DNA from: Escherichia phage BME3
DNA: 64,000 nt
Reading direction: 5' to 3' (one strand)
Sequence record: PP239276.1
Part shown: in pieces, positions 21,707 through 37,465 of the stretch
How positions within the stretch are numbered: position 1 is the first letter of the stretch
Layout of the letters: every line of letters starts with the position of its first letter
Translations under genes and position numbers: made by a program
Notes under the pieces: model-generated
What the model was told of the DNA's origin: nothing
Database searches by the model: none
Seen by the model: only the letters and a program-made list of their open reading frames with translations

Positions 21707-21737
21707 AGAAAAGGAGCCTAATGGCTCCTTTTTTATT
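21707..21737. terminator. bidirectional rho-independent terminator between convergent operons
   Basis: AAAAGGAGCC-TAAT-GGCTCCTTTT hairpin flanked by A-run and T-run, sited between the plus-strand block and the minus-strand tail fibre gene. Confidence 0.7.
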
Positions 21738-24555
21738 AGTCGTAATATTTCAAACCTGTAATAAAGACTGATCCCCAATCGTACAAGCTGGAGTAGTTTA
21801 TTGTCCAAGTAGATGCCGTACCAGAGAATACGTCACGAACAACGTCGCCGTTGGAATAGTAAACATCCACACCAGTATGTCCGTTCCTTGGTATAGTGAA
21901 GGATACTCCTCCTAAATTTCCAGGATATGTGCAGACATAAGGCGATCCAGCTTTTGATGTTTCTCCTGTAGAAGCACCTTCAAGCTGTGGCAACCAAACT
22001 GCAAGGTTACTAGTACCATCTCCAGCGAAAATCTCCGCACCAGTTGCATCCAAGGCAATTATTTCAAAACTTATGGAGGACTGTTTGGCTATCCCTGTTT
22101 TATGCAGAATAGCACGATACCAACCGTTGCCCATAGATATAATATTAGCTTCACTTCCTGTGAATGTACCTGCTGCTAAATCAAAAGTACCCTCATTAAC
22201 TTCAGTTCCTGCTTTTAATCTTAGTTTGGCCTTAGTAATCCCGTTCGCTTTCAAGAAAACAGAGGCAGACCAGTTACGTCCGGCAGATATGTTGTACGCG
22301 TTAGTATATGTCGCAGTTAAGATATGACTACCAGAGGTTGTAGTCGGAGTTAATTTGAATACATTAGCAGTGGTTCCAGCCGGAGAGTTATCAGATGAAG
22401 CTGCAACAGTTAAGTTGGTCTTTACCCACGGGCTTGCGCTTGTTAAGGCGTTGTTGACAAAAATTTGTGTAGCTGTGTTAGCTGTTACACGTCTACCTAC
22501 AGGGGTAGTGCCAACATACTCCAACGGAGCAACCAAGGTGTTAGTGGCTACAAGTGTATCTCCAGAAGCACGAGCAAAAGAGTTCCCACCATTAACCTTA
22601 ACATCTGATGGAAGAGTTTCTTGTGTCAAATCATAGTCCATCACGACAGGTTTATCTTCTACTTTTCCTGCTGTAACGCTAACATTAAAACGTACTAAAG
22701 GAGATAACACATCATTTGCTTCGTCATAATATGCAACATCAAATATCGTAGTACCTGCTGCAAAACCATATTGTTCTACTTGATCTGCATAGGTAAACGT
22801 ATAACTGTTCGTATTAAGCGTTTGTTCAGTTAATACAGATGCTGTTAAGACGTTAATATTACGGAAGTAGTGTTTACTATAACCTTGAGCATCCCATGCT
22901 AAAATTGTATCTTGATTAGACTGGGAAGTAGCTGTTGCTCCAGTTGGAACAGCCATATCAACCCAAACAGGTGATGTTGATGTTAAGTCTGTACCGTCTG
23001 CTGCTGATTTAGCAAGTTTTGTAGCTGCTGTTTGGTATACAGAAGAAATATAATGGATACGACCATCAATACCTTCTTCATAAACATAACCACTGTAGCG
23101 TTCAGCACCATCCACCCAAGAACCAATGATAACATCATCACGTGCCGTAGAGATGGCTCTTTGTACATTTCTGTATTTCTGCCAATCCACACCATTAACT
23201 TCTACACCATATAGATAAGAACGTCCTAGGATCTGCCAAACAATTTTTGCTTGAGAAGCAGGAACTATTGTACGCATCTTATCAAAGATAGCTATCGTAG
23301 CATCATGGTAACGTGTAGTGTTACTGTATCTACCTGCAACAGTCGAAGATGCTGATACAGCATCATTTTCACCTTGTCCCCAAATAATCGCTTTAACCTT
23401 ACTTGCATAAGGTGTGACTTTAGTGATAAAGTTAGTTAAGCATGGCCCATCTGCTGTATTATCCAGATCATACCAGTAGTTGTCTGGTGTACCTGTTCCA
23501 GCTTTATCATCTGCATATTTATCTGCTGCTGATGATCCAGAAGCTGTATTTAACGGGAGAACTTCAGCATTTGCTAAACCACGTTGCGTAGCATATGCAT
23601 TACGGGCTGTTGTGCTACTCATTGCTGCTTTATTTGCACCAGATAGTTCTGTAAAGTGTGCATTTACGTTATCTTGTCCAGCAAAGACAATAACTTCTTT
23701 AATGAATGAATCATCTGTAGCTATTGAGTTATTAAAGATAACGGGTGCTGCTTTGGTGCTCTTAACGCTAATTTTAAGGTATGTTGGAGCAAACCCATAA
23801 AGAGGAATAGAGTCAGAGATATCAAAGTAAGCGTAAGTATTCGTGGTTGTTGTAGTCCACTGGACACTGTTATTACTTAAATCTAATACTTCTACAGTAT
23901 AAGTATCACCATCTAGCGGATCAGCTACATCCCAAGCAACACGAATGTCTCCATAGCTGTTTGCCACGGCTGTTACATTAGAAATAACAGGAATAGCATT
24001 AACACCTAAATAAGAACTATCAGAGGCCACCACTGTTCCTTGATAAGTTGCAGTACAACCTATACGGCAACTGCCATCTTTAAGAGCAGTTATTAATCCT
24101 GTAGGGCTTACAGTAGCTACTTCTGGATCTGTTGTGGTGTACGTAATTACCATGTCTGGAAGGTCTTTAGCACCTTCTGGACTGATTGTAGCAACCAATT
24201 GTTGAGTAGTTCCTGCATCCATAGCAGACAGACTTTCAGTGTACACACTTAATTCTGAAGCATAGCCACCAGATTGATCAGTTAAGACAGCACCTAAATT
24301 ATTTTTAGCTGTCATTATTGCATCAAAACCGCCTTCAGCAACAAACTCCATCATACCATTATTATCTATAACCATTTTGGTATTATCTGAAGATGAAAAA
24401 GCTATATCAAATAACGCACCATCTTCTGGTGAAACTGTGTATGTCAGTTGCTTTTTACTACCAACTATTGCAATACCAATAGAGGAAGTGGTTATAGATG
24501 TAGCTGTTACTACTGAAGCTGATGTTGTTGACATAAATAAAGGAATAGGATACAT
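21736..24555 (-). CDS. tail fibre / host-specificity protein (large)
   Basis: 939 aa, Thr/Ser/Gly-rich beta-rich composition, last gene of structural operon. Confidence 0.5.
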   Translation of the reverse strand: MYPIPLFMSTTSASVVTATSITTSSIGIAIVGSKKQLTYTVSPEDGALFDIAFSSSDNTKMVIDNNGMMEFVAEGGFDAIMTAKNNLGAVLTDQSGGYASELSVYTESLSAMDAGTTQQLVATISPEGAKDLPDMVITYTTTDPEVATVSPTGLITALKDGSCRIGCTATYQGTVVASDSSYLGVNAIPVISNVTAVANSYGDIRVAWDVADPLDGDTYTVEVLDLSNNSVQWTTTTTNTYAYFDISDSIPLYGFAPTYLKISVKSTKAAPVIFNNSIATDDSFIKEVIVFAGQDNVNAHFTELSGANKAAMSSTTARNAYATQRGLANAEVLPLNTASGSSAADKYADDKAGTGTPDNYWYDLDNTADGPCLTNFITKVTPYASKVKAIIWGQGENDAVSASSTVAGRYSNTTRYHDATIAIFDKMRTIVPASQAKIVWQILGRSYLYGVEVNGVDWQKYRNVQRAISTARDDVIIGSWVDGAERYSGYVYEEGIDGRIHYISSVYQTAATKLAKSAADGTDLTSTSPVWVDMAVPTGATATSQSNQDTILAWDAQGYSKHYFRNINVLTASVLTEQTLNTNSYTFTYADQVEQYGFAAGTTIFDVAYYDEANDVLSPLVRFNVSVTAGKVEDKPVVMDYDLTQETLPSDVKVNGGNSFARASGDTLVATNTLVAPLEYVGTTPVGRRVTANTATQIFVNNALTSASPWVKTNLTVAASSDNSPAGTTANVFKLTPTTTSGSHILTATYTNAYNISAGRNWSASVFLKANGITKAKLRLKAGTEVNEGTFDLAAGTFTGSEANIISMGNGWYRAILHKTGIAKQSSISFEIIALDATGAEIFAGDGTSNLAVWLPQLEGASTGETSKAGSPYVCTYPGNLGGVSFTIPRNGHTGVDVYYSNGDVVRDVFSGTASTWTINYSSLYDWGSVFITGLKYYD

Positions 24556-24565
24556 TTAATCTCCT

Positions 24566-24594
24566 TAAATAATAAGCCCCCGAAGGGGCTTTGA
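24566..24594 (-). terminator. rho-independent terminator
   Basis: AGCCCC-CGAA-GGGGCT hairpin with T-run on minus strand. Confidence 0.55.
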
Positions 24595-26556
24595 TTATGT
24601 GCGTTTAGCAACAATAGCATCCACGTAATCGCCAACACCACAATATGTTAGTTGTAGTATTGTTACTCCGTTAGGATCTGTATTAATATCACTAGAACCA
24701 ATTACTTTGTAAGATGGATCTAAAGTAACAGTACGACCTCCAGTGGCATCTTGGATAAGATAAACTATTGCAGAGAATGGTTTAGGTTTTGTACTATCTT
24801 CGACACCAGGCCATGCTTTTATAGTAGCGTTACCAGTAAGATTCAACACATTCATGTTATGTGTTCCTGGAGGTGTCCAGTCTCCTGTAACAGAATTGTT
24901 GGTATATGCTGTAACCTCTATAAAATTAGTTGTTACTTTTGTTGGAACTATATCTTGACCATCTACAGAACTAGTGAGTTCTTCCCATGCTCCATCTTTA
25001 CGAGCATAAGTCTTACCATCACTAGGTGCATCTGTGATACTAGGTAGTGTACCTTGAGAAGTCCAGACAGTTGCAGATGTTTTTAAGAACACCTCGCCCG
25101 TGGAGATATTAAAGGCATAATCACCTTGTTTACCATCACTAGAGATTGGATCTGTTGTTTTAACAATCCAAGTTGCACCGTCTGTACCGTTAGTACCAGC
25201 GTCACCTTTTTCACCCTTATCACCTTTCAAACTACCCATATCTACATATTCAGCAGTTTGAGTTTGTTCATCATAGGTGTAAATGTAAAGATGACCTGTA
25301 TCTTCCGTCAGATAAGCATCACCGTAATTAGCTGTAGGGGGAAGTGCACTTGCAGACGCAACGTGTCCTTTTGCAGTGATTGGAGTACCAGCTAAACGAC
25401 CAACATTTGTCCACTCTGTGGCTCCTTGCAACCAGACCCAAAGTTCATTATTGATCAGATAACCATCACCCTCTTCTCCAGTTTGTGGTAGTTCAGAAGT
25501 GCTAGTCAGAATGTCAATAATGGTCAACCCTGCACCAGTTGGCCCCGTCAAGCCTTGTATACCCTGTTCACCTTGATCACCCTTGTCTCCCTTATCACCT
25601 TTTTCTCCTTTCAGAGAGGCAATATATTCGTCAATAGTACCAACGTTACCAGCATTTAACCAGACTTGATAAGCTGAATCACCAGTGTTACCCTTATCTC
25701 CTTTGTCGCCTTTATCTCCTTTTGGCCCCACTATAGCGCCCATATTGATCCATTCTACACCGTTTGACACGTATAGATATGTACCAATACTCCATGCTTG
25801 AGATGTGTTTCCATGAGATGCAGAAGGAAGATCTGAAACGGAATTAGCTGCGCCTTGGTAATCAAAACCATTAGCATTGTTACCTGGCACACCTTGTGGC
25901 CCCTCTGGGCCAGGCTCCCCTTTATCACCTTTAATTGAGGCAAGATAATCTAGTTCTGTACCTTGGTTTCCTGCTGCAAGCCATACTTCATAAGCAGATT
26001 TACCTTCTGGCCCCTGTGAGTTTACTTTTCTCCAAGCAGTACCATCCCAAGCATACATATTCTCGCCTACAATCCATGCATCTCCTGCATTGTTTCCAGT
26101 TGTAGGTAATTGGTTGGTATTAGATAGCGTCCCTAGTAGCTTTAATGGAGCACCTGGATCACCTTTTAAAGAAGCCAACCACTGTGTCTCAGTGCCTTGG
26201 AAACCATTGTCTACGGCAATCTGGTAAGCTGATTTACCAGCTTCTGGGATGGATTCTCTAAGATCTTCAATTTCAGCTTCAATAGCATCTAATTCTGATT
26301 CTATTTGAGCAATGTCATCTGCATTACCCACATTTTTCCAAGCTGTATCTGAAATCCCTCCAGTAGATGTAGGAGTAGAGTTAGCAGGTACAACTTTAGG
26401 TAGAGAACCTTTCCACTGATAGTAGTTACCGTCAGCTTCAAAGAGCAATGCTTCACGAGCATCTCTTAAGGTAAAACCACTTGCAAAACTTCTACGCTTT
26501 CTATAGCGAGACTCTACCATGTCTGCAATGGCACTATTTGGACGTGTTAAAATCAC
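24595..26556 (-). CDS. tail fibre protein with collagen-like Gly-X-Y repeats
   Basis: GDKGDKGDKGNTG, GEKGDKGDKGDQGEQGIQGLTGPTG and KGDKGEKGDAGTNGTDG triplet runs. Confidence 0.6.
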   Translation of the reverse strand: MILTRPNSAIADMVESRYRKRRSFASGFTLRDAREALLFEADGNYYQWKGSLPKVVPANSTPTSTGGISDTAWKNVGNADDIAQIESELDAIEAEIEDLRESIPEAGKSAYQIAVDNGFQGTETQWLASLKGDPGAPLKLLGTLSNTNQLPTTGNNAGDAWIVGENMYAWDGTAWRKVNSQGPEGKSAYEVWLAAGNQGTELDYLASIKGDKGEPGPEGPQGVPGNNANGFDYQGAANSVSDLPSASHGNTSQAWSIGTYLYVSNGVEWINMGAIVGPKGDKGDKGDKGNTGDSAYQVWLNAGNVGTIDEYIASLKGEKGDKGDKGDQGEQGIQGLTGPTGAGLTIIDILTSTSELPQTGEEGDGYLINNELWVWLQGATEWTNVGRLAGTPITAKGHVASASALPPTANYGDAYLTEDTGHLYIYTYDEQTQTAEYVDMGSLKGDKGEKGDAGTNGTDGATWIVKTTDPISSDGKQGDYAFNISTGEVFLKTSATVWTSQGTLPSITDAPSDGKTYARKDGAWEELTSSVDGQDIVPTKVTTNFIEVTAYTNNSVTGDWTPPGTHNMNVLNLTGNATIKAWPGVEDSTKPKPFSAIVYLIQDATGGRTVTLDPSYKVIGSSDINTDPNGVTILQLTYCGVGDYVDAIVAKRT

Positions 26557-26571
26557 TTTACTACTCCTTTT

Positions 26572-26596
26572 ATAAAGGGGCTTTCGCCCCTTTTAA
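26572..26596 (-). terminator. terminator-like hairpin
   Basis: AAAGGGGC-TTTCG-CCCCTTTT. Confidence 0.4.
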
Positions 26597-29011
26597 TTAA
26601 GCATTATTGACAGTAACAAAAGTAACAGGGTTCAGAGCTTTAATTTTTGTATTCTCTGCTGTAGGTGTTACAATTGGATCTGCAATATCTATTGTGTACA
26701 AACTATTTGTCACATATGTAGCACGTGCTATAGTTGTCACAAGATCGCCGCCATTTGCACCTGCACCTGGAATAACAATCTTAGTACCTGCTGCTTTAGC
26801 GTAGCCATTACTAGCCCAGTTTAAAGCATTAGACTGTAGATAGGTTTGACCTGTAACAGTTGCTTTTATTTTCTCATTATCACTAAAGAAAGCACCACCT
26901 GCTGTAACAACGTGTTTTTTACCGCTTGCACAATGAATAACTGTTCCAGTAGGGAAGTCACGCCCACCTGGGAATTCATCATAATCTGTAAAATATTGTT
27001 CAGAAATAGTGGTTAAGACTGGCCCACGATGACCTGTACCATCAACAGCAGTTGGAACACCAAAGTTATTTCCAACCTGATCGCAACGATCCGTGTAGAT
27101 TTTAGCAAAAGAAACTGTTGTTTTATCTCCGCTAAGTGCTGTACATCCTACCCACTTCATATAAGTGAATTGGCTGCGAGTATAGAAACCGCCACCACTT
27201 CCTTCTCCGCTTCCGTGTTGACCAATAAAGTCAATACTACGGCAACGAATATTATTAAAAGTAGAGCTAGATGGTAGCCCACGCCATTTAAAATCATTAC
27301 AATTGATGTTACTAACAATTGTAGAGTTTTCCCAGGCGTCTGATCCAGCCGTTGCAATCTCAATCGAAGATTCTGGAATATCCAAATTCTTAATTGTAAA
27401 GTTAATTGGTGGCCCCGCATATCTTCCACCGTTAACACCCCAGTCAATAAAGACCATGCGTGTTGAAACAGACGGATCATTAAGCAGATAACCAGTTAAA
27501 CCATCAACTTCAAAGTCTTGGCATCCGTATAATGCAACACCACAAGTAGTTAAACCTGTACCTGTTGAAACTGCTGTGTTAGGATAAACTTCGTTATCAC
27601 GTATTGTGAAGTTTTTACCCATTTCAACGTGTAGACATTGACGGCAATTGTAAACTCTATTTCCAACGATACTGAAGTTACGTACATATTGTGAATCAGG
27701 AGCATCAACACCATATGGGCCACTACCTGCTACACCAATACCAATACCCCAGTTTGCACCTTGTCCAGAAGCATCTACGTTAGCAATGTGGTTATTCTCG
27801 ATGATCAAACCTTCAGTGTAGTGTCTTTGAACTACGTTAAGTTCAATAGCATCACCTTTGATATCGTGAATGTAGTTGTTAGAGTAACGCCCATAGGTCA
27901 TTACTTCTCCAGTACCTTGTTGCAGGATCGCATATTTACAACCATACATCTCGTTGTAACTGAAGTCCAACGTACCTTCACTTGTCATTGCTTGCATTAA
28001 GAATGCTGCTGTAGATGTTGCGTTGGAGAAGATATTACGATAGAATCGGCAATCACCACCTAACATCTTAACATAACATTTTTCAAAGCGAACGTTTTCA
28101 ATCCAACAGGACACAGTAGAAATCATTGTTCCACCGTTACCAGTGAATGTACCACCATACCAACGAATACCAGACATAGCAATTGAGCTTGTGAATCTAT
28201 AATTCTTATCTGCACGTACTTGAATGTTATTCGTGTTAGCGAAAGTAATGGTTTTTAGAATTGCTTGAGTATCATCGGTAACTCCATCACCAATTGCACC
28301 AAACTGCTCAGGCGTTACAAAGTATTGAGCTTGTAACAGGTTGCCTCCAGATGGAAGACCAACCATTGCTGCACCAGTAGTAGATGACAAAAGGTTTTTC
28401 TCTACGTAAGAAGTAGAGGCTGTTGTTTTACCAATAAAAGCAAACAATTTGTTAGGTAGACCAGTAGACGGATCTAAACCTAATGGTTCTGCCAGAATAA
28501 TTTTACTATCTTTAATAGTAAATGCTTCACCCTGAATCTGAATTACACCGTTAATGGTGACAATAGCATTATCAAAGATATAAGGAGGACTGATTTCTGT
28601 TTCATATCCTGTAGCACCTTTAAAATACCAAGGATACACATCTGAAGCTAACTGTTCAGTTTTAAGAGCGTACAGAGTCCAGTTACTGTCTCCTACAGGT
28701 GTACCCTGCATAGGTACAGGGTTCGCAGTAGTGGCAGATGGGGCATAGTAGTACCCACTCAAGATACCGTTTTCAAAATAACGTAACTGGTTAAATACAG
28801 TTTCAGTTGATCCTGCTGACCAAGCAACAGGACTCTTAAAGAAGAAGTTATCAACAAGTGCTTTACGCAGTGTAGGTATTAAACCTGTTTCGGTTTCTAC
28901 AGTTGCTGTAGCATCCCCGTTAATAACATCATGCATCTGGTTAGACGAGAATATAACCAGATCAACACCTTGTTCTAGTGTCGTAGCAGGATATGTTGGA
29001 AAATTCGCCAT
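26597..29011 (-). CDS. tailspike-like protein, probable right-handed beta-helix (depolymerase candidate)
   Basis: 804 aa; repetitive N/G/T-rich segments with motifs such as NNYIHDIKGDAIELNVV typical of pectate-lyase-like beta-helices. Confidence 0.5.
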   Translation of the reverse strand: MANFPTYPATTLEQGVDLVIFSSNQMHDVINGDATATVETETGLIPTLRKALVDNFFFKSPVAWSAGSTETVFNQLRYFENGILSGYYYAPSATTANPVPMQGTPVGDSNWTLYALKTEQLASDVYPWYFKGATGYETEISPPYIFDNAIVTINGVIQIQGEAFTIKDSKIILAEPLGLDPSTGLPNKLFAFIGKTTASTSYVEKNLLSSTTGAAMVGLPSGGNLLQAQYFVTPEQFGAIGDGVTDDTQAILKTITFANTNNIQVRADKNYRFTSSIAMSGIRWYGGTFTGNGGTMISTVSCWIENVRFEKCYVKMLGGDCRFYRNIFSNATSTAAFLMQAMTSEGTLDFSYNEMYGCKYAILQQGTGEVMTYGRYSNNYIHDIKGDAIELNVVQRHYTEGLIIENNHIANVDASGQGANWGIGIGVAGSGPYGVDAPDSQYVRNFSIVGNRVYNCRQCLHVEMGKNFTIRDNEVYPNTAVSTGTGLTTCGVALYGCQDFEVDGLTGYLLNDPSVSTRMVFIDWGVNGGRYAGPPINFTIKNLDIPESSIEIATAGSDAWENSTIVSNINCNDFKWRGLPSSSTFNNIRCRSIDFIGQHGSGEGSGGGFYTRSQFTYMKWVGCTALSGDKTTVSFAKIYTDRCDQVGNNFGVPTAVDGTGHRGPVLTTISEQYFTDYDEFPGGRDFPTGTVIHCASGKKHVVTAGGAFFSDNEKIKATVTGQTYLQSNALNWASNGYAKAAGTKIVIPGAGANGGDLVTTIARATYVTNSLYTIDIADPIVTPTAENTKIKALNPVTFVTVNNA

Positions 29012-33638: not shown

Positions 33639-35297
33639 TTACACGTAAGCACTCTCGAACTTACAGAACCAAGTCGTTCCTTCATCAGTTGTTGACAACC
33701 TAAAAACTTGTGTTCCAGCTGCTGTCAAAGATGGGGTACTGCTTGCTAATTTAACATTTTCACCAAATGTTATTGTTTTAGATGTTGTTGAATAGACAGC
33801 CAAAAGAACCTCAACATAACCAGTTAGTGTATTTGTTAATACTGCTGGAGTTATTGTTACATCCCCTGTAACTGTAGCTGCGATGTAAGATGCGTCTGAA
33901 AAGTCAGGCGCATAACTTGCTGTTGGCGTCTCGAACTTTGTACTTCTTACCAATACAGGAACTCCAACATTTTTCCTGAAAATTGTACTATTGCAAACCA
34001 TATCATACTCTATACCAACAAAATTCTTAGCTGCGAGTATGTTAGTAAATGTCTGATCCACAGAGTAAATATGAGTTATCAGCCTTGCCACCCATGCTGG
34101 TGAGTTTGAGTTTTCACACTCAATGAATGAGCAATTGCTACTGCCAACGGCGAATGGCATTAGTGATGCCGCATATGCAGATAACCCTGCGTCATTAAAC
34201 GCATTCATATTCACAAACGTCTGGCATTGAGAGAACGTATTACCGGTGGCTCCACCATCAATAAAAAAGCCAATCCCGCCGTTAATATAACCATCTAAAG
34301 CATCCAAATTTGCTTTCGTATAATCCCATTTTGACGGTGAATCAGCAAAGCACTGATTGAAGGAATTGTTTATTGAGTTCTGTACAACAAAGCAGCATTT
34401 CATCCTTGAGTTCTGGTCAGTGACTGTATCGTCATACATGCCCCAGTTGTGCACCTTACTAATTCTGTTATTGCCACCACCACGAACCCAGGTACCAAAT
34501 CGGAAATAACGACCTTCACCCATGCTAACCTGATGATCGCTACCTTCAACAATGTGGGCTGTGCAGAGCGGATTGGTTGGTTTTAATACACCAACAGCAT
34601 AAAACTTCAATAGGTGCACACCCATGCCGCCAGCAATATGGATGCCATGACCATCAACGTTGGCTACGTAAATGCCATCTAACTTGTTAGCATAGCCATC
34701 GGATATCTTAAACCCATTAACAGTTTTTGCACGGGCATCAATTAATAAGTTGCTGATATGCCCAGCGTATTGATTACCCATCCCTTTATCGCATTTAACA
34801 GCATAGCCAGAGGAGTCTGCGGCGAAGTCGTCGGTGAGGTACACCCCACCGAAACCAGCATCAATGCTAACATCTCCGTGAATGTGCAGTGTCGTACTGA
34901 TAGGATATTTCTTCCCATTCAGCCTGATAACTTTGCTTACAGTGTTAGGTTGTAGCCAGTCAGGATGGTTAGCAGCACTACTTGGTGCATGTTCTAAACC
35001 TGTTAAAGCTGCCGCAGCATCAATCGCATCCTGTAATGATGGATACATATCCGGGTTGACATTTATAATTTTCTTAAGCGCATTGCCAACAGTACCAGTT
35101 TCGTAATCAATTGACTTATCAAAACCTGAAAAACCTGCTCCATCTGTATCTTTCAACTGGGTGGCTAAAACCACCCCAGTGTCAGTAAGAAAGTTGGAAA
35201 CTGTGCTTTTAACAGTCTTATCAGGTTGGTCTAAAACCAGGTAATCAGAACCATTAACTTTTGATGTTTCGGGTAAATTAGTAATTGTAGTTGACAT
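33639..35297 (-). CDS. second tailspike-like beta-helix protein
   Basis: 552 aa, repetitive G/N/V-rich motifs (GHGIHIAGGMGVHLL). Confidence 0.45.
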   Translation of the reverse strand: MSTTITNLPETSKVNGSDYLVLDQPDKTVKSTVSNFLTDTGVVLATQLKDTDGAGFSGFDKSIDYETGTVGNALKKIINVNPDMYPSLQDAIDAAAALTGLEHAPSSAANHPDWLQPNTVSKVIRLNGKKYPISTTLHIHGDVSIDAGFGGVYLTDDFAADSSGYAVKCDKGMGNQYAGHISNLLIDARAKTVNGFKISDGYANKLDGIYVANVDGHGIHIAGGMGVHLLKFYAVGVLKPTNPLCTAHIVEGSDHQVSMGEGRYFRFGTWVRGGGNNRISKVHNWGMYDDTVTDQNSRMKCCFVVQNSINNSFNQCFADSPSKWDYTKANLDALDGYINGGIGFFIDGGATGNTFSQCQTFVNMNAFNDAGLSAYAASLMPFAVGSSNCSFIECENSNSPAWVARLITHIYSVDQTFTNILAAKNFVGIEYDMVCNSTIFRKNVGVPVLVRSTKFETPTASYAPDFSDASYIAATVTGDVTITPAVLTNTLTGYVEVLLAVYSTTSKTITFGENVKLASSTPSLTAAGTQVFRLSTTDEGTTWFCKFESAYV

Positions 35298-35305
35298 TTT
35301 TACTC

Positions 35306-37465
35306 CTATATATAAAATTTTTGTGTTGTTACTAAATCTTCTCCAGATTTAGTGGCTAATGTAATTCCACTTATAGTGGCAATCTCAACATTTACCTGTT
35401 TAAGAGTGATATCTTGCAAGTAGCAATTCAAAGGCACATTACCCATATAAAACACTTGGGATTTTGAATTAAGAACAGTTATTGAATCATGCATTATTTG
35501 TGGGTAAGCCCATATGTATTGATATAAACCAACAAACTTCTGGTCATTCAATACAATATTGCCTATAATCATTTTCCACAAATATGTTCTATAGTTTGAT
35601 TCAGGATCAAAGCCATATAATGGTGCTAGAGTTGCATCTGGAACAAACCCTGCAAGATAATGTATCTTATCGTAACTAAAACCTAGTTGCTCATTAGGTA
35701 TTGTGATAGCGTCGAAAGATTTTTCCATCTTACCTTCCAACAACCAGTCATAACATTCTGAACAATAAAAGTCAAAGTTCTCTGGGATATAATAATCTTT
35801 AGGGAAGTTAACAAACTCCATCATACCATTACCCAAAATGGATGGCACAAATGGTAACAATGTAACTTTAGCTCCAGGATATGCTAATCTGGTATCTGTT
35901 GCAAATTTAGCAACACGCAGTCCTAATGTTTTAGATAGGAATGCATAATATTCATCATATGGTGTACCAGTTTTATAATTTTTAACTGTACCAACATCTT
36001 GTGCATACAATCCAGTTTCATTATTAAATGCAACTTTGGTTGCATAATCATAAATACACGGCAGATTGGTAGCTGTGTTATACCACCACCACGGTTCACC
36101 AACCTGAATAATAACCGGAAGATCATTAGCAGCGGATATAGAAGCTATCTTATTTATTACACCTTGTAAATAATTCATCCCTTCATCAATTGAAGGAGAT
36201 AAAACATAACTTGGTGGCTCATAACCTGTAGCAGCCAGATCATCATTCCAAGTATGTTGTACCCATTCCACAGGACACACTGTACTCATAATTTCAAAAC
36301 TTAAGGAGTTCATTACTGTGTAGCCCATAGCTTTTGCATTAGCGTGGAAATTATCAAACCAGGCTTCTGTTGCTGGGTTTAAATATTCTGTTCTGTTCAA
36401 AGCCCATTTATTAGAACCAGCATCCCAACTAAATTGATAATAGTGTGACATACCATTATAATGGTTAATCATATCCCTATAACCTAATCTATAGGTGTTG
36501 GAAATAACTCGCTCTGGGGTCAGGTTATACATATCATCATAAGATGTGCACATTCTTATGGTGTGTGCTGGAACATTTAAATTACCCATATTCATCATAC
36601 TGTAACCAGTATCAGGCTCTAGTATGGTAAACTTAAAGGAAAGATCCATATTGTCTACAGGTATAACATCTTCAATTTCTTGATACCTTGCGGAGATCAA
36701 GGAGAAGAACATGTTATCTATCTGTGTAGTGTCAACAACAATATCATTTTCTGGCCCAGATTTTAAATTTGAGAAATCTAATTTGATTATTGCTGTTTTA
36801 CCGTCCTCTGAAACTTCTTCTGCATAAAAGTTTAGAGATACATAATGAACTGTTTCATCCTTCAGTGTCACTGTTAAGGATGGCAATAATTTTTCTTCTT
36901 TTAATCCAGGAACACCTTGACTAAGTTCCATTTTAAACCAAAGTTTCTCTTTACTTAAGTCAGAATGTTCTTGGTAGCCTAATCCTTTGTGATCATATTT
37001 ATCGTAAGTTGACCAAATAATCCCAGCAAGACCAGCCACTGTCCTATTAACCATTCTTGCTGTGAAAGAATCACCATTAGAGATAATAGAACAACTTTCT
37101 GTTGCTTGAGAATCTATTGTCCAAAACTTAGGATCAAACATTCTAGACTTCACAACAGGCCAAGTTAGCGGGGTCGTATTCGATTGATTAGTCGTAATAA
37201 CACAACGAATTTCTTCATTGATCATCATGTTATTTTGACTTATGCTAGTAATCTCAAGAGTAAAATAAAGATCTAAAGAGTTTGCCGGACGTTCATATAC
37301 ATCAACCACTACAGTAGCAGAATCTGCATCAGAAGGGAACGTTACTGTTCCCTGTTTAGCTACATAATCTCTACCAGCGACCGCCGTTCCATCGACGGTC
37401 TTATAGCTGAATGAACTGGCATTTACTCTCGTATTTCGAGTTACAGTAAAAATAGCCTGTTTCAT
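35306..37465 (-). CDS. structural protein (baseplate/tail)
   Basis: 719 aa ORF in structural operon. Confidence 0.45.
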   Translation of the reverse strand: MKQAIFTVTRNTRVNASSFSYKTVDGTAVAGRDYVAKQGTVTFPSDADSATVVVDVYERPANSLDLYFTLEITSISQNNMMINEEIRCVITTNQSNTTPLTWPVVKSRMFDPKFWTIDSQATESCSIISNGDSFTARMVNRTVAGLAGIIWSTYDKYDHKGLGYQEHSDLSKEKLWFKMELSQGVPGLKEEKLLPSLTVTLKDETVHYVSLNFYAEEVSEDGKTAIIKLDFSNLKSGPENDIVVDTTQIDNMFFSLISARYQEIEDVIPVDNMDLSFKFTILEPDTGYSMMNMGNLNVPAHTIRMCTSYDDMYNLTPERVISNTYRLGYRDMINHYNGMSHYYQFSWDAGSNKWALNRTEYLNPATEAWFDNFHANAKAMGYTVMNSLSFEIMSTVCPVEWVQHTWNDDLAATGYEPPSYVLSPSIDEGMNYLQGVINKIASISAANDLPVIIQVGEPWWWYNTATNLPCIYDYATKVAFNNETGLYAQDVGTVKNYKTGTPYDEYYAFLSKTLGLRVAKFATDTRLAYPGAKVTLLPFVPSILGNGMMEFVNFPKDYYIPENFDFYCSECYDWLLEGKMEKSFDAITIPNEQLGFSYDKIHYLAGFVPDATLAPLYGFDPESNYRTYLWKMIIGNIVLNDQKFVGLYQYIWAYPQIMHDSITVLNSKSQVFYMGNVPLNCYLQDITLKQVNVEIATISGITLATKSGEDLVTTQKFYI

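Follow-up and report, generated by a model that had tools for sequence, protein, structure and literature searches.

A putative lateral tail fibre of Escherichia phage BME3 with four short collagen-like runs between folded modules and an internal foldon-like motif

The 64,000-nucleotide stretch of Escherichia phage BME3 DNA analysed here (sequence record PP239276.1, hereafter the window, whose numbering is used throughout) carries at 24595-26556 on the minus strand the gene for a 653-amino acid tail fibre protein orthologous to phi92 gp151, in which four uninterrupted collagen-like Gly-X-Y runs are placed between folded modules. The protein is likely a lateral fibre of the phi92 gp151 type assembled as a beads-on-a-string homotrimer, with the four runs forming short collagen-like triple helices that act as spacers, followed by a foldon and a C-terminal tip. 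The results that carry this reading are the identity of the gene, the map and order of its modules, the periodicity of the runs, the evolutionary constraint acting on them and the homology of the foldon.

A single open reading frame (ORF) of 653 codons and a stop fills the whole of 24595-26556 on the minus strand, and the plus-strand translation of the same segment is riddled with stops. The plus-strand ORFs lying over the fibre gene (56-98 amino acids) give no sign of being real genes, and no further test of them was made. The gene and its ribosome-binding site are as follows.

24595-26556, minus strand: coding sequence of 653 amino acids with a GTG start, orthologue of phi92 gp151 and putative lateral tail fibre (from the ORF and homology)
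26564-26568, minus strand: ribosome-binding site AGGAG, 7 nucleotides ahead of the GTG, annotated at the same place in phi92

The top megablast matches are PD114 (99.1% nucleotide identity) and phi92 gp151 (98.9% over 100% of the gene), and BME3 is therefore placed in Justusliebigvirus, the phi92-like myophages. The phi92 gp151 protein (YP_009012483.1) is equal in length to the BME3 fibre and differs from it at 10 amino acids. Identity of at least 95% over the whole gene is found in 55 phage genomes, and a further 54 records contain a full-length ORF at 60-80% identity. The PHROG family phrog_15437, 'tail fiber protein', aligns over its entire length with the whole protein (residues 1-653, profile positions 1-656 of 656; E = 0), and all PHROG matches of the ORF fall in the tail category. 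The naming of the product as a tail fibre in the original prediction is thus upheld by the phi92 orthology, the full-length PHROG match, the position in a tail gene cluster and the tailspike-type N-terminal domain described below. The fibre family comprises at least 2615 database clusters at E ≤ 1e-5 among 8000 candidates scored, and structural relatives that bear a tail-fibre or collagen-like protein name come from Erwinia, Ralstonia, Cronobacter and phiKZ-like phages and from giant viruses. GenBank lists the gene under names such as 'tail fiber protein', and the records of the BASEL phages PaulScherrer and JohannJBalmer call it 'lateral tail fiber protein with type I collagen domain'; public records already contain the gene, its annotation as a fibre and the collagen motif. 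A label of 'Campylobacter phage' with the host C. jejuni is carried by four 146-kb records (MG065639, MG065645, MG065656 and MG065689) that are 98.9% identical over the full gene length, and these labels probably reflect mislabelling or a contaminant.

The uninterrupted Gly-X-Y stretches reported at the outset for a 653-amino acid protein are present as four runs of 6, 6, 9 and 6 triplets, and both of the strings then quoted, with the minus strand left unmentioned, are found in them, GDKGDKGDKG within residues 277-294 and GEKGDKGDKGDQGEQGIQGLTGPTG at residues 317-341. Two further pairs of triplets lie outside the four runs.

25876-25929, minus strand: collagen-like run 1, residues 210-227, 6 triplets, GDKGEPGPEGPQGVPGNN, always 6 in orthologues
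25675-25728, minus strand: collagen-like run 2, residues 277-294, 6 triplets, GPKGDKGDKGDKGNTGDS, 5-11 in orthologues
25528-25608, minus strand: collagen-like run 3, residues 317-343, 9 triplets, GEKGDKGDKGDQGEQGIQGLTGPTGAG, 8-10 in orthologues, site of the Pfam Collagen match
25171-25224, minus strand: collagen-like run 4, residues 445-462, 6 triplets, GDKGEKGDAGTNGTDGAT, 4-13 in orthologues
26146-26163, minus strand: GDPGAP, residues 132-137, two Gly-X-Y triplets
25996-26013, minus strand: GPEGKS, residues 182-187, two Gly-X-Y triplets

Repeat annotation, proposed together with the original prediction, returns the Pfam Collagen family (PF01391) at 32.1 bits against a cut-off of 27.2. Neither a run of 9 triplets nor a set of four runs with 5 or more triplets each arose in any of 5000 shuffles of the fibre protein, in which the longest run had a mean of 2.8 and a maximum of 6 triplets, and no run of at least 5 triplets occurs in any other reading frame of the window. 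The four runs contain nine Lys-Gly-Asp/Glu (KGD/KGE) motifs. Such motifs form stabilizing interchain salt bridges in collagen peptides.

Comparison of the relatives shows that the triplet period itself is conserved. Among 12 orthologues that are about 60% identical, conservation of the 27 Gly columns is 100%, with the X and Y columns identical at 40% and 58%, and in a set widened to 28 sequences the corresponding values are 99.7% for Gly, 26% for X and 44% for Y. The number of triplets is constant in run 1 and varies in whole triplets in runs 2-4. When run-length differences are taken between anchors outside the runs, all 51 usable differences, spanning at least 14 distinct length classes, are multiples of three residues. 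A recent step of this kind is visible in five near-identical phages (SD2, PD06, EC.P2, ECGD1 and PHB05), which have gained 9 base pairs (bp), equal to one extra GEK, in run 4 with the insertion point near position 25209. Imperfect 9-bp tandem repeats are present in the DNA of the runs, run 3 included, and the triplet period is also kept in diverged runs with non-repetitive DNA. Over 7410 triplets from 120 relatives the X position is 26% Pro and 34% Asp plus Glu, the Y position is 24.5% Gln, 24% Lys plus Arg and 11% Thr, and aromatic residues are almost absent from both. This bias closely resembles that of the viral collagen row in Table 4 of PMC3368898. Collagen-like spacers are thus supported by a Pfam score above threshold, invariant glycines, whole-triplet length steps, the X/Y bias and the trimerization elements that flank the runs. 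Of the two roles first offered for the collagen segments, spacer or shaft, that of spacers between folded modules stands, and that of a whole shaft does not, the runs making up only 81 of 653 residues.

The remainder of the protein is composed of an N-terminal domain, a short coiled coil, two kinds of repeated module termed A and B, a foldon-like motif and a tip, listed from the N to the C terminus.

26326-26526, minus strand: Tail_spike_N domain (PF18668), residues 11-77, the best-conserved part of the protein, 75.7 bits against 25, E 3e-21
26242-26325, minus strand: short coiled coil of three heptads, residues 78-105, predicted helix 81-102
26161-26241, minus strand: A1 cap module, residues 106-132, KSAYQIAVDNGFQGTETQWLASLKG, predicted helix-turn-helix
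26014-26148, minus strand: B1 beta module, residues 137-181, motif LP..G..GD.W.V....W.G..W
25927-26007, minus strand: A2 cap module, residues 184-210
25726-25869, minus strand: B2 beta module, residues 230-277
25606-25686, minus strand: A3 cap module, residues 291-317
25387-25530, minus strand: B3 beta module, residues 343-390
25222-25386, minus strand: B4 beta module, residues 391-445
25042-25173, minus strand: B5 beta module, residues 462-505, missing from the orthologue P0014
24970-25047, minus strand: foldon-like motif LPSITDAPSDGKTYARKDGAWEELTS, residues 504-529, related to the C-terminal trimerization hairpin of T4 fibritin
24598-24969, minus strand: C-terminal beta-sandwich tip of 124 amino acids, residues 530-653

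The Tail_spike_N domain is probably the attachment end of the fibre, because it is the best-conserved part of the protein; PDB chains matching residues 11-77 are 4OJ5, 5W6F, 4QNL and 9VVR (E 1e-7 to 5e-14). In the coiled coil the hydrophobic residues 82, 85, 89, 92, 96, 99 and 103 follow a perfect 3-4-3-4 spacing. The three A modules, of about 26 residues each, have the pattern SAYxxxxxxGxxGTxxxxxxS[LI]KG and are predicted to form a helix-turn-helix, closing in SLKG with the last Gly being the first Gly of a run. The five B modules, of about 45-55 residues each, mostly carry the pattern LP..G..GD.Y.......W..G and are predicted to be four-stranded, with a predicted local distance difference test (pLDDT) score of 85-90 in the monomer AlphaFold2 (AF2) model. 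Isolated A and B modules match no Pfam family, and a suggested resemblance of the B modules to DUF2793 was therefore not taken as an assignment to that or any other named repeat. Solved relatives from PDB sequence and profile searches are limited to the N-terminal domain, foldon and tip, with no solved homologue covering the A modules, the B modules or the Gly-X-Y runs.

Conservation falls from the N terminus, where the first three segments are 94%, 74% and 85% identical, to the tip at 54%, and in more distant relatives the N-terminal 70% is retained with the C-terminal part replaced. Homologues of the tip form the C termini of fibres in phiTE, Vequintavirus, Raoultella and Klebsiella phages, the match to chain g of the phiTE structure (PDB code 9CUY) having a profile E of 1e-15; in the paper describing 9CUY only N-terminal fibre residues are modelled. 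Because it is common to the fibres of these phages, the tip fits a portable receptor-binding or capping domain. In the orthologue P0014 (622 amino acids) the whole of B5 is missing at alignment columns of about 505-555, so that run 4 leads straight into the foldon, and this alignment shows that modules can be lost as units.

In an alignment of ITDAPSDGKTYARKDGAWEELTS with the foldon of T4 fibritin, A-P-x-D-G, Tyr, Arg-Lys-Asp-Gly and Trp are conserved, and ITDAPSDGKTYARKDGAWEEL, aligned to fibritin, has all the residues that make up the core of the beta-hairpin propeller (A-P-x-D-G, Tyr, Arg and Trp). Within the foldon-like motif, delimited more narrowly at residues 507-529, AF2 places strands at 517-520 and 523-526 with low confidence. 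The Fibritin_C family (PF07921) scores 23.2 bits against a cut-off of 21 on the 30-amino acid segment alone, and PDB profile matches to fibritin have E values of 0.002-0.02. A profile built from the orthologues matches entries for fibritin, numerous glycoproteins that carry a foldon tag and the engineered (GPP)10-foldon protein (PDB code 1NAY), and the same motif is present in the receptor-binding protein of phage JBD30 (PDB code 8RK3). Among the 120 relatives the motif is found in 54, in all 54 of them after the last Gly-X-Y run and with 113-215 residues from its start to the C terminus. Some relatives (P0058, P0037, P0033 and others) have two to six tandem foldon-like motifs ahead of the tip. 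A literature search for a natural pairing of collagen and foldon in phage fibres gave nothing relevant.

From these features we infer a trimeric state, a triple-helix conformation of the runs, a direction of folding, receptor binding by the tip and attachment of the fibre to the tail. The tailspike-type domain and the three-heptad coiled coil would form the virion-proximal end, from which A caps and B beta modules would alternate, linked by triple helices of 6, 6, 9 and 6 triplets. At 2.88 Å per residue the 81 residues of the four runs would extend to a total of about 23 nm. The fibritin-type foldon would then be followed by the 124-amino acid beta-sandwich tip, presumed to contact the host surface. 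The collagen segments would serve as thin stiff spacers, the length of which may shift one triplet at a time through slippage of the 9-bp repeats. Because the runs are without hydroxyproline and contain little Pro, the stability of the helices is suggested to come from trimeric modules clamping both ends and from Lys(Y)-Gly-Asp/Glu(X) charge pairs. The foldon, always C-terminal of the last run, would set the register of the chains and nucleate trimerization, with the coiled coil sharing the register role.

Several observations weigh against this arrangement. The runs are short (18-27 residues) with Pro at only 7 of 54 X/Y positions, and isolated helices would therefore be marginal. The monomer AF2 models, one of the full-length protein and one of its C-terminal part, leave the runs and the foldon at pLDDT below 50 and give no structure for the runs, which is not weighed against the helix because no triple helix could emerge from a single chain. 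On the whole protein Fibritin_C reaches only 19.1 bits, under the threshold of 21, and the foldon, which ends the chain in T4 fibritin, is here followed by 124 residues. Length differences in multiples of three may be due in part to 9-bp slippage and not to selection alone. Finally, the AlphaFold3 (AF3) trimer of gp151 fitted no fibre density of phi92, in which fibre II is without an assignment (PMC13450770).

The first of these observations, runs of only 6-9 triplets with few Pro, together with the AF2 scores below 50, the imperfect 9-bp tandem repeats and the one recent 9-bp duplication, would also be expected if the runs were Gly-rich hinges, flexible and essentially without structure, that link trimeric modules and owe their periodicity to 9-bp repeat expansion. 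Such hinges are rather unlikely, however, as the Gly columns are 100% invariant where X/Y identity goes down to 40-58%, the period persists in runs without repetitive DNA and all 51 anchor-to-anchor differences are multiples of three. The strong X/Y asymmetry and the near absence of aromatics are as in proven viral collagens, trimerizing elements flank the runs, and the low AF2 scores come from a monomer model that could not reveal a triple helix.

The position of the protein on the virion bears on a second alternative, in which it is a fibre of the head or neck, or one of whisker type, comparable to gp52 (the capsid spike of Pa223) or to T4 fibritin, and not a baseplate or tail fibre. The Pa223 capsid spike has the closest solved fold to the beta modules and tip (PMC13450770; bioRxiv 2025.06.11.659172), a fibritin-type foldon is present, and the AF3 trimer does not fit the phi92 fibre II density. 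The spike structure (PDB code 9NY6) is the only solved one resembling the beta modules and C-terminal knob, with Foldseek E values of 1.5e-4 and 2.3e-3 at a probability of 1.0, but with template modelling (TM) scores of only 0.27-0.36 from monomer models, and two PDB searches give no sequence match of the fibre to 9NY6. A head or neck location is nonetheless judged improbable, since the gene lies in a tail-fibre/tailspike cluster beside the colanidase tailspike in two genera, the N-terminal domain is as in the CBA120, G7C and P22-like tailspikes, and the PHROG matches are all in the tail category. As for the misfit, a thin flexible fibre averages out of cryo-electron microscopy (cryo-EM) wherever it is attached. 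The last alternative, that the triplet runs are chance low complexity in a non-functional or mis-called ORF, is refuted by the shuffles, none of which reaches the observed runs, and by conservation, with the full-length ORF in the 55 and the further 54 records noted above and a conserved ribosome-binding site.

A lateral tail fibre with collagen-like spacers is therefore retained as the likely reading, and gp151 is one of four candidate fibre proteins in the 2026 cryo-EM study of phi92 (PMC13450770). Its absence from the cryo-EM maps does not equate to absence from the virion, because averaging would remove a fibre that is thin and jointed. Bas63 was considered as a phi92-like structure and dropped, being a Felixounavirus.

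The fibre gene directly follows that of gp150, the colanic-acid-degrading tailspike (colanidase; 26597-29011), within the tail-fibre/tailspike cluster. On the same strand and in the same order as in phi92 are a gp141-like gene, a gp142-like gene, the occupant of the gp143 slot, proteins of the baseplate wedge, a gp147-like short fibre together with its assembly protein, a small lipoprotein, the gp150 tailspike, the fibre gene and a 939-amino acid 'tail protein' with a Big_2 domain. The order is also kept in the Phapecoctavirus ESCO13, the orthologue of which is 60% identical. Start, ribosome-binding site and neighbours are alike in phi92 gp151 and the BME3 fibre with almost nothing different in the gene itself, and the differences between the two genomes sit in neighbouring genes. 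The 'tail protein' (21736-24555, minus strand) is full length in 26 of 60 related genomes, and phi92 has at its position the 203-amino acid gp152 and gp153 instead. The slot that in phi92 holds the 918-amino acid endosialidase gp143 is occupied, with the gp142-like gene on one side and the baseplate genes on the other, by a 552-amino acid ORF (33639-35297, minus strand) that has no Pfam match and a weak PHROG tail-fibre match confined to its C terminus. Its slot position, the lack of a Pfam match and the weak PHROG match identify it as a putative different, uncharacterised receptor-binding protein at a known swap position. The gp142-like protein (35306-37465, minus strand) has a Calx-beta domain together with the N-terminal and TIM-barrel domains of 'non-contractile tail sheath protein' families (PF23844 and PF23845), the latter found despite the contractile tail of this phage. 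Two minus-strand hairpins with GC-rich stems flank the fibre gene, GGGGC-GAAA-GCCCC at 26577-26590 between the gp150 stop and the fibre ribosome-binding site, and AAGCCCC-TTCG-GGGGCTT at 24574-24591 directly past the fibre stop, the latter flagged as terminator-like. These tetraloop hairpins may be attenuators or transcript-stabilizing elements between tail-fibre genes.

The module map, the internal foldon after the runs and the in-register triplet polymorphism are a descriptive refinement and not a new kind of system, and their value as a discovery is small, collagen-like phage tail fibres having already been characterised biochemically. The map, the foldon and the triplet variation do lead to concrete construct design for structural work on gp151, such as the tip joined to the foldon or single A-collagen-B units, for which natural 6- and 7-triplet alleles of run 4 both exist, and the thin layout of the fibre means that gp151 may escape averaged phi92 cryo-EM maps. 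As natural minimal collagen helices clamped by trimeric domains, the family may also interest protein engineers. A broader proposal, offered tentatively as a possibility that falls short of likely, is that gp151-type fibres are a natural 'collagen plus foldon', in which very short helices of as few as 4-6 triplets, much shorter than would be stable on their own, would be held by trimeric caps at both ends and nucleated by the foldon, single-triplet slippage would tune the reach among closely related phages, and the whole would form an extra receptor-binding appendage that has gone unseen. If so, the thin jointed gp151 fibre would be a component missed by every phi92 cryo-EM map, and the 'Swiss-army-knife' baseplate of phi92 would bear one more receptor-binding appendage.

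Collagen-like tail fibres are established in phages (PMC3368898), a further example being FibU of 80alpha (PMC7048315). The collagen-like tail-fibre proteins of E. coli prophages are experimentally trimeric triple helices (Ghosh et al. 2012, PMC3368898), and the EPclA-D proteins of enterohaemorrhagic E. coli prophages share with the BME3 fibre the Gly-X-Y domains, a coiled coil, the preferences at X and Y and variants whose lengths differ by multiples of three (PMC3368898). EPclA-D have a C-terminal trimerization domain alongside one or two long collagen domains, mostly of 63-322 residues, placed between PfN, PCoil and PfC (PMC3368898), whereas the BME3 fibre has four runs of 18-27 residues set among A and B modules of an unrelated kind, with Tail_spike_N as its head and with a foldon, and Pfam detects no PfN, PfC or Pf2 domain in it. 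The tailspikes CBA120 TSP1-4 and G7C gp63.1 have the PF18668 domain in common with residues 11-77 of the fibre; in these it is preceded by about 100 residues and followed by beta-helix enzymes, whereas in BME3 it comes after just 10 residues and leads into a fibre. Pa223 gp52 is trimeric and fibre-like with a distal knob, the preprint text being without mention of collagen (bioRxiv 2025.06.11.659172), and it binds the capsid three-fold axes by an unrelated N-terminal peptide in place of the tailspike-type domain found in BME3. With T4 fibritin (PF07921; PDB code 1RFO), the shaft of which is a coiled coil and not collagen, the fibre shares the foldon motif I-x-[DE]-A-P-x-D-G-x-x-Y-x-R-K-D-G-x-W-x-x-L. 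In both the engineered (GPP)10-foldon (1NAY) and the BME3 fibre the foldon comes C-terminal to the collagen-like segments, and the BME3 fibre differs from 1NAY and fibritin in having a B module between the last run and the foldon and a 124-amino acid tip after it.

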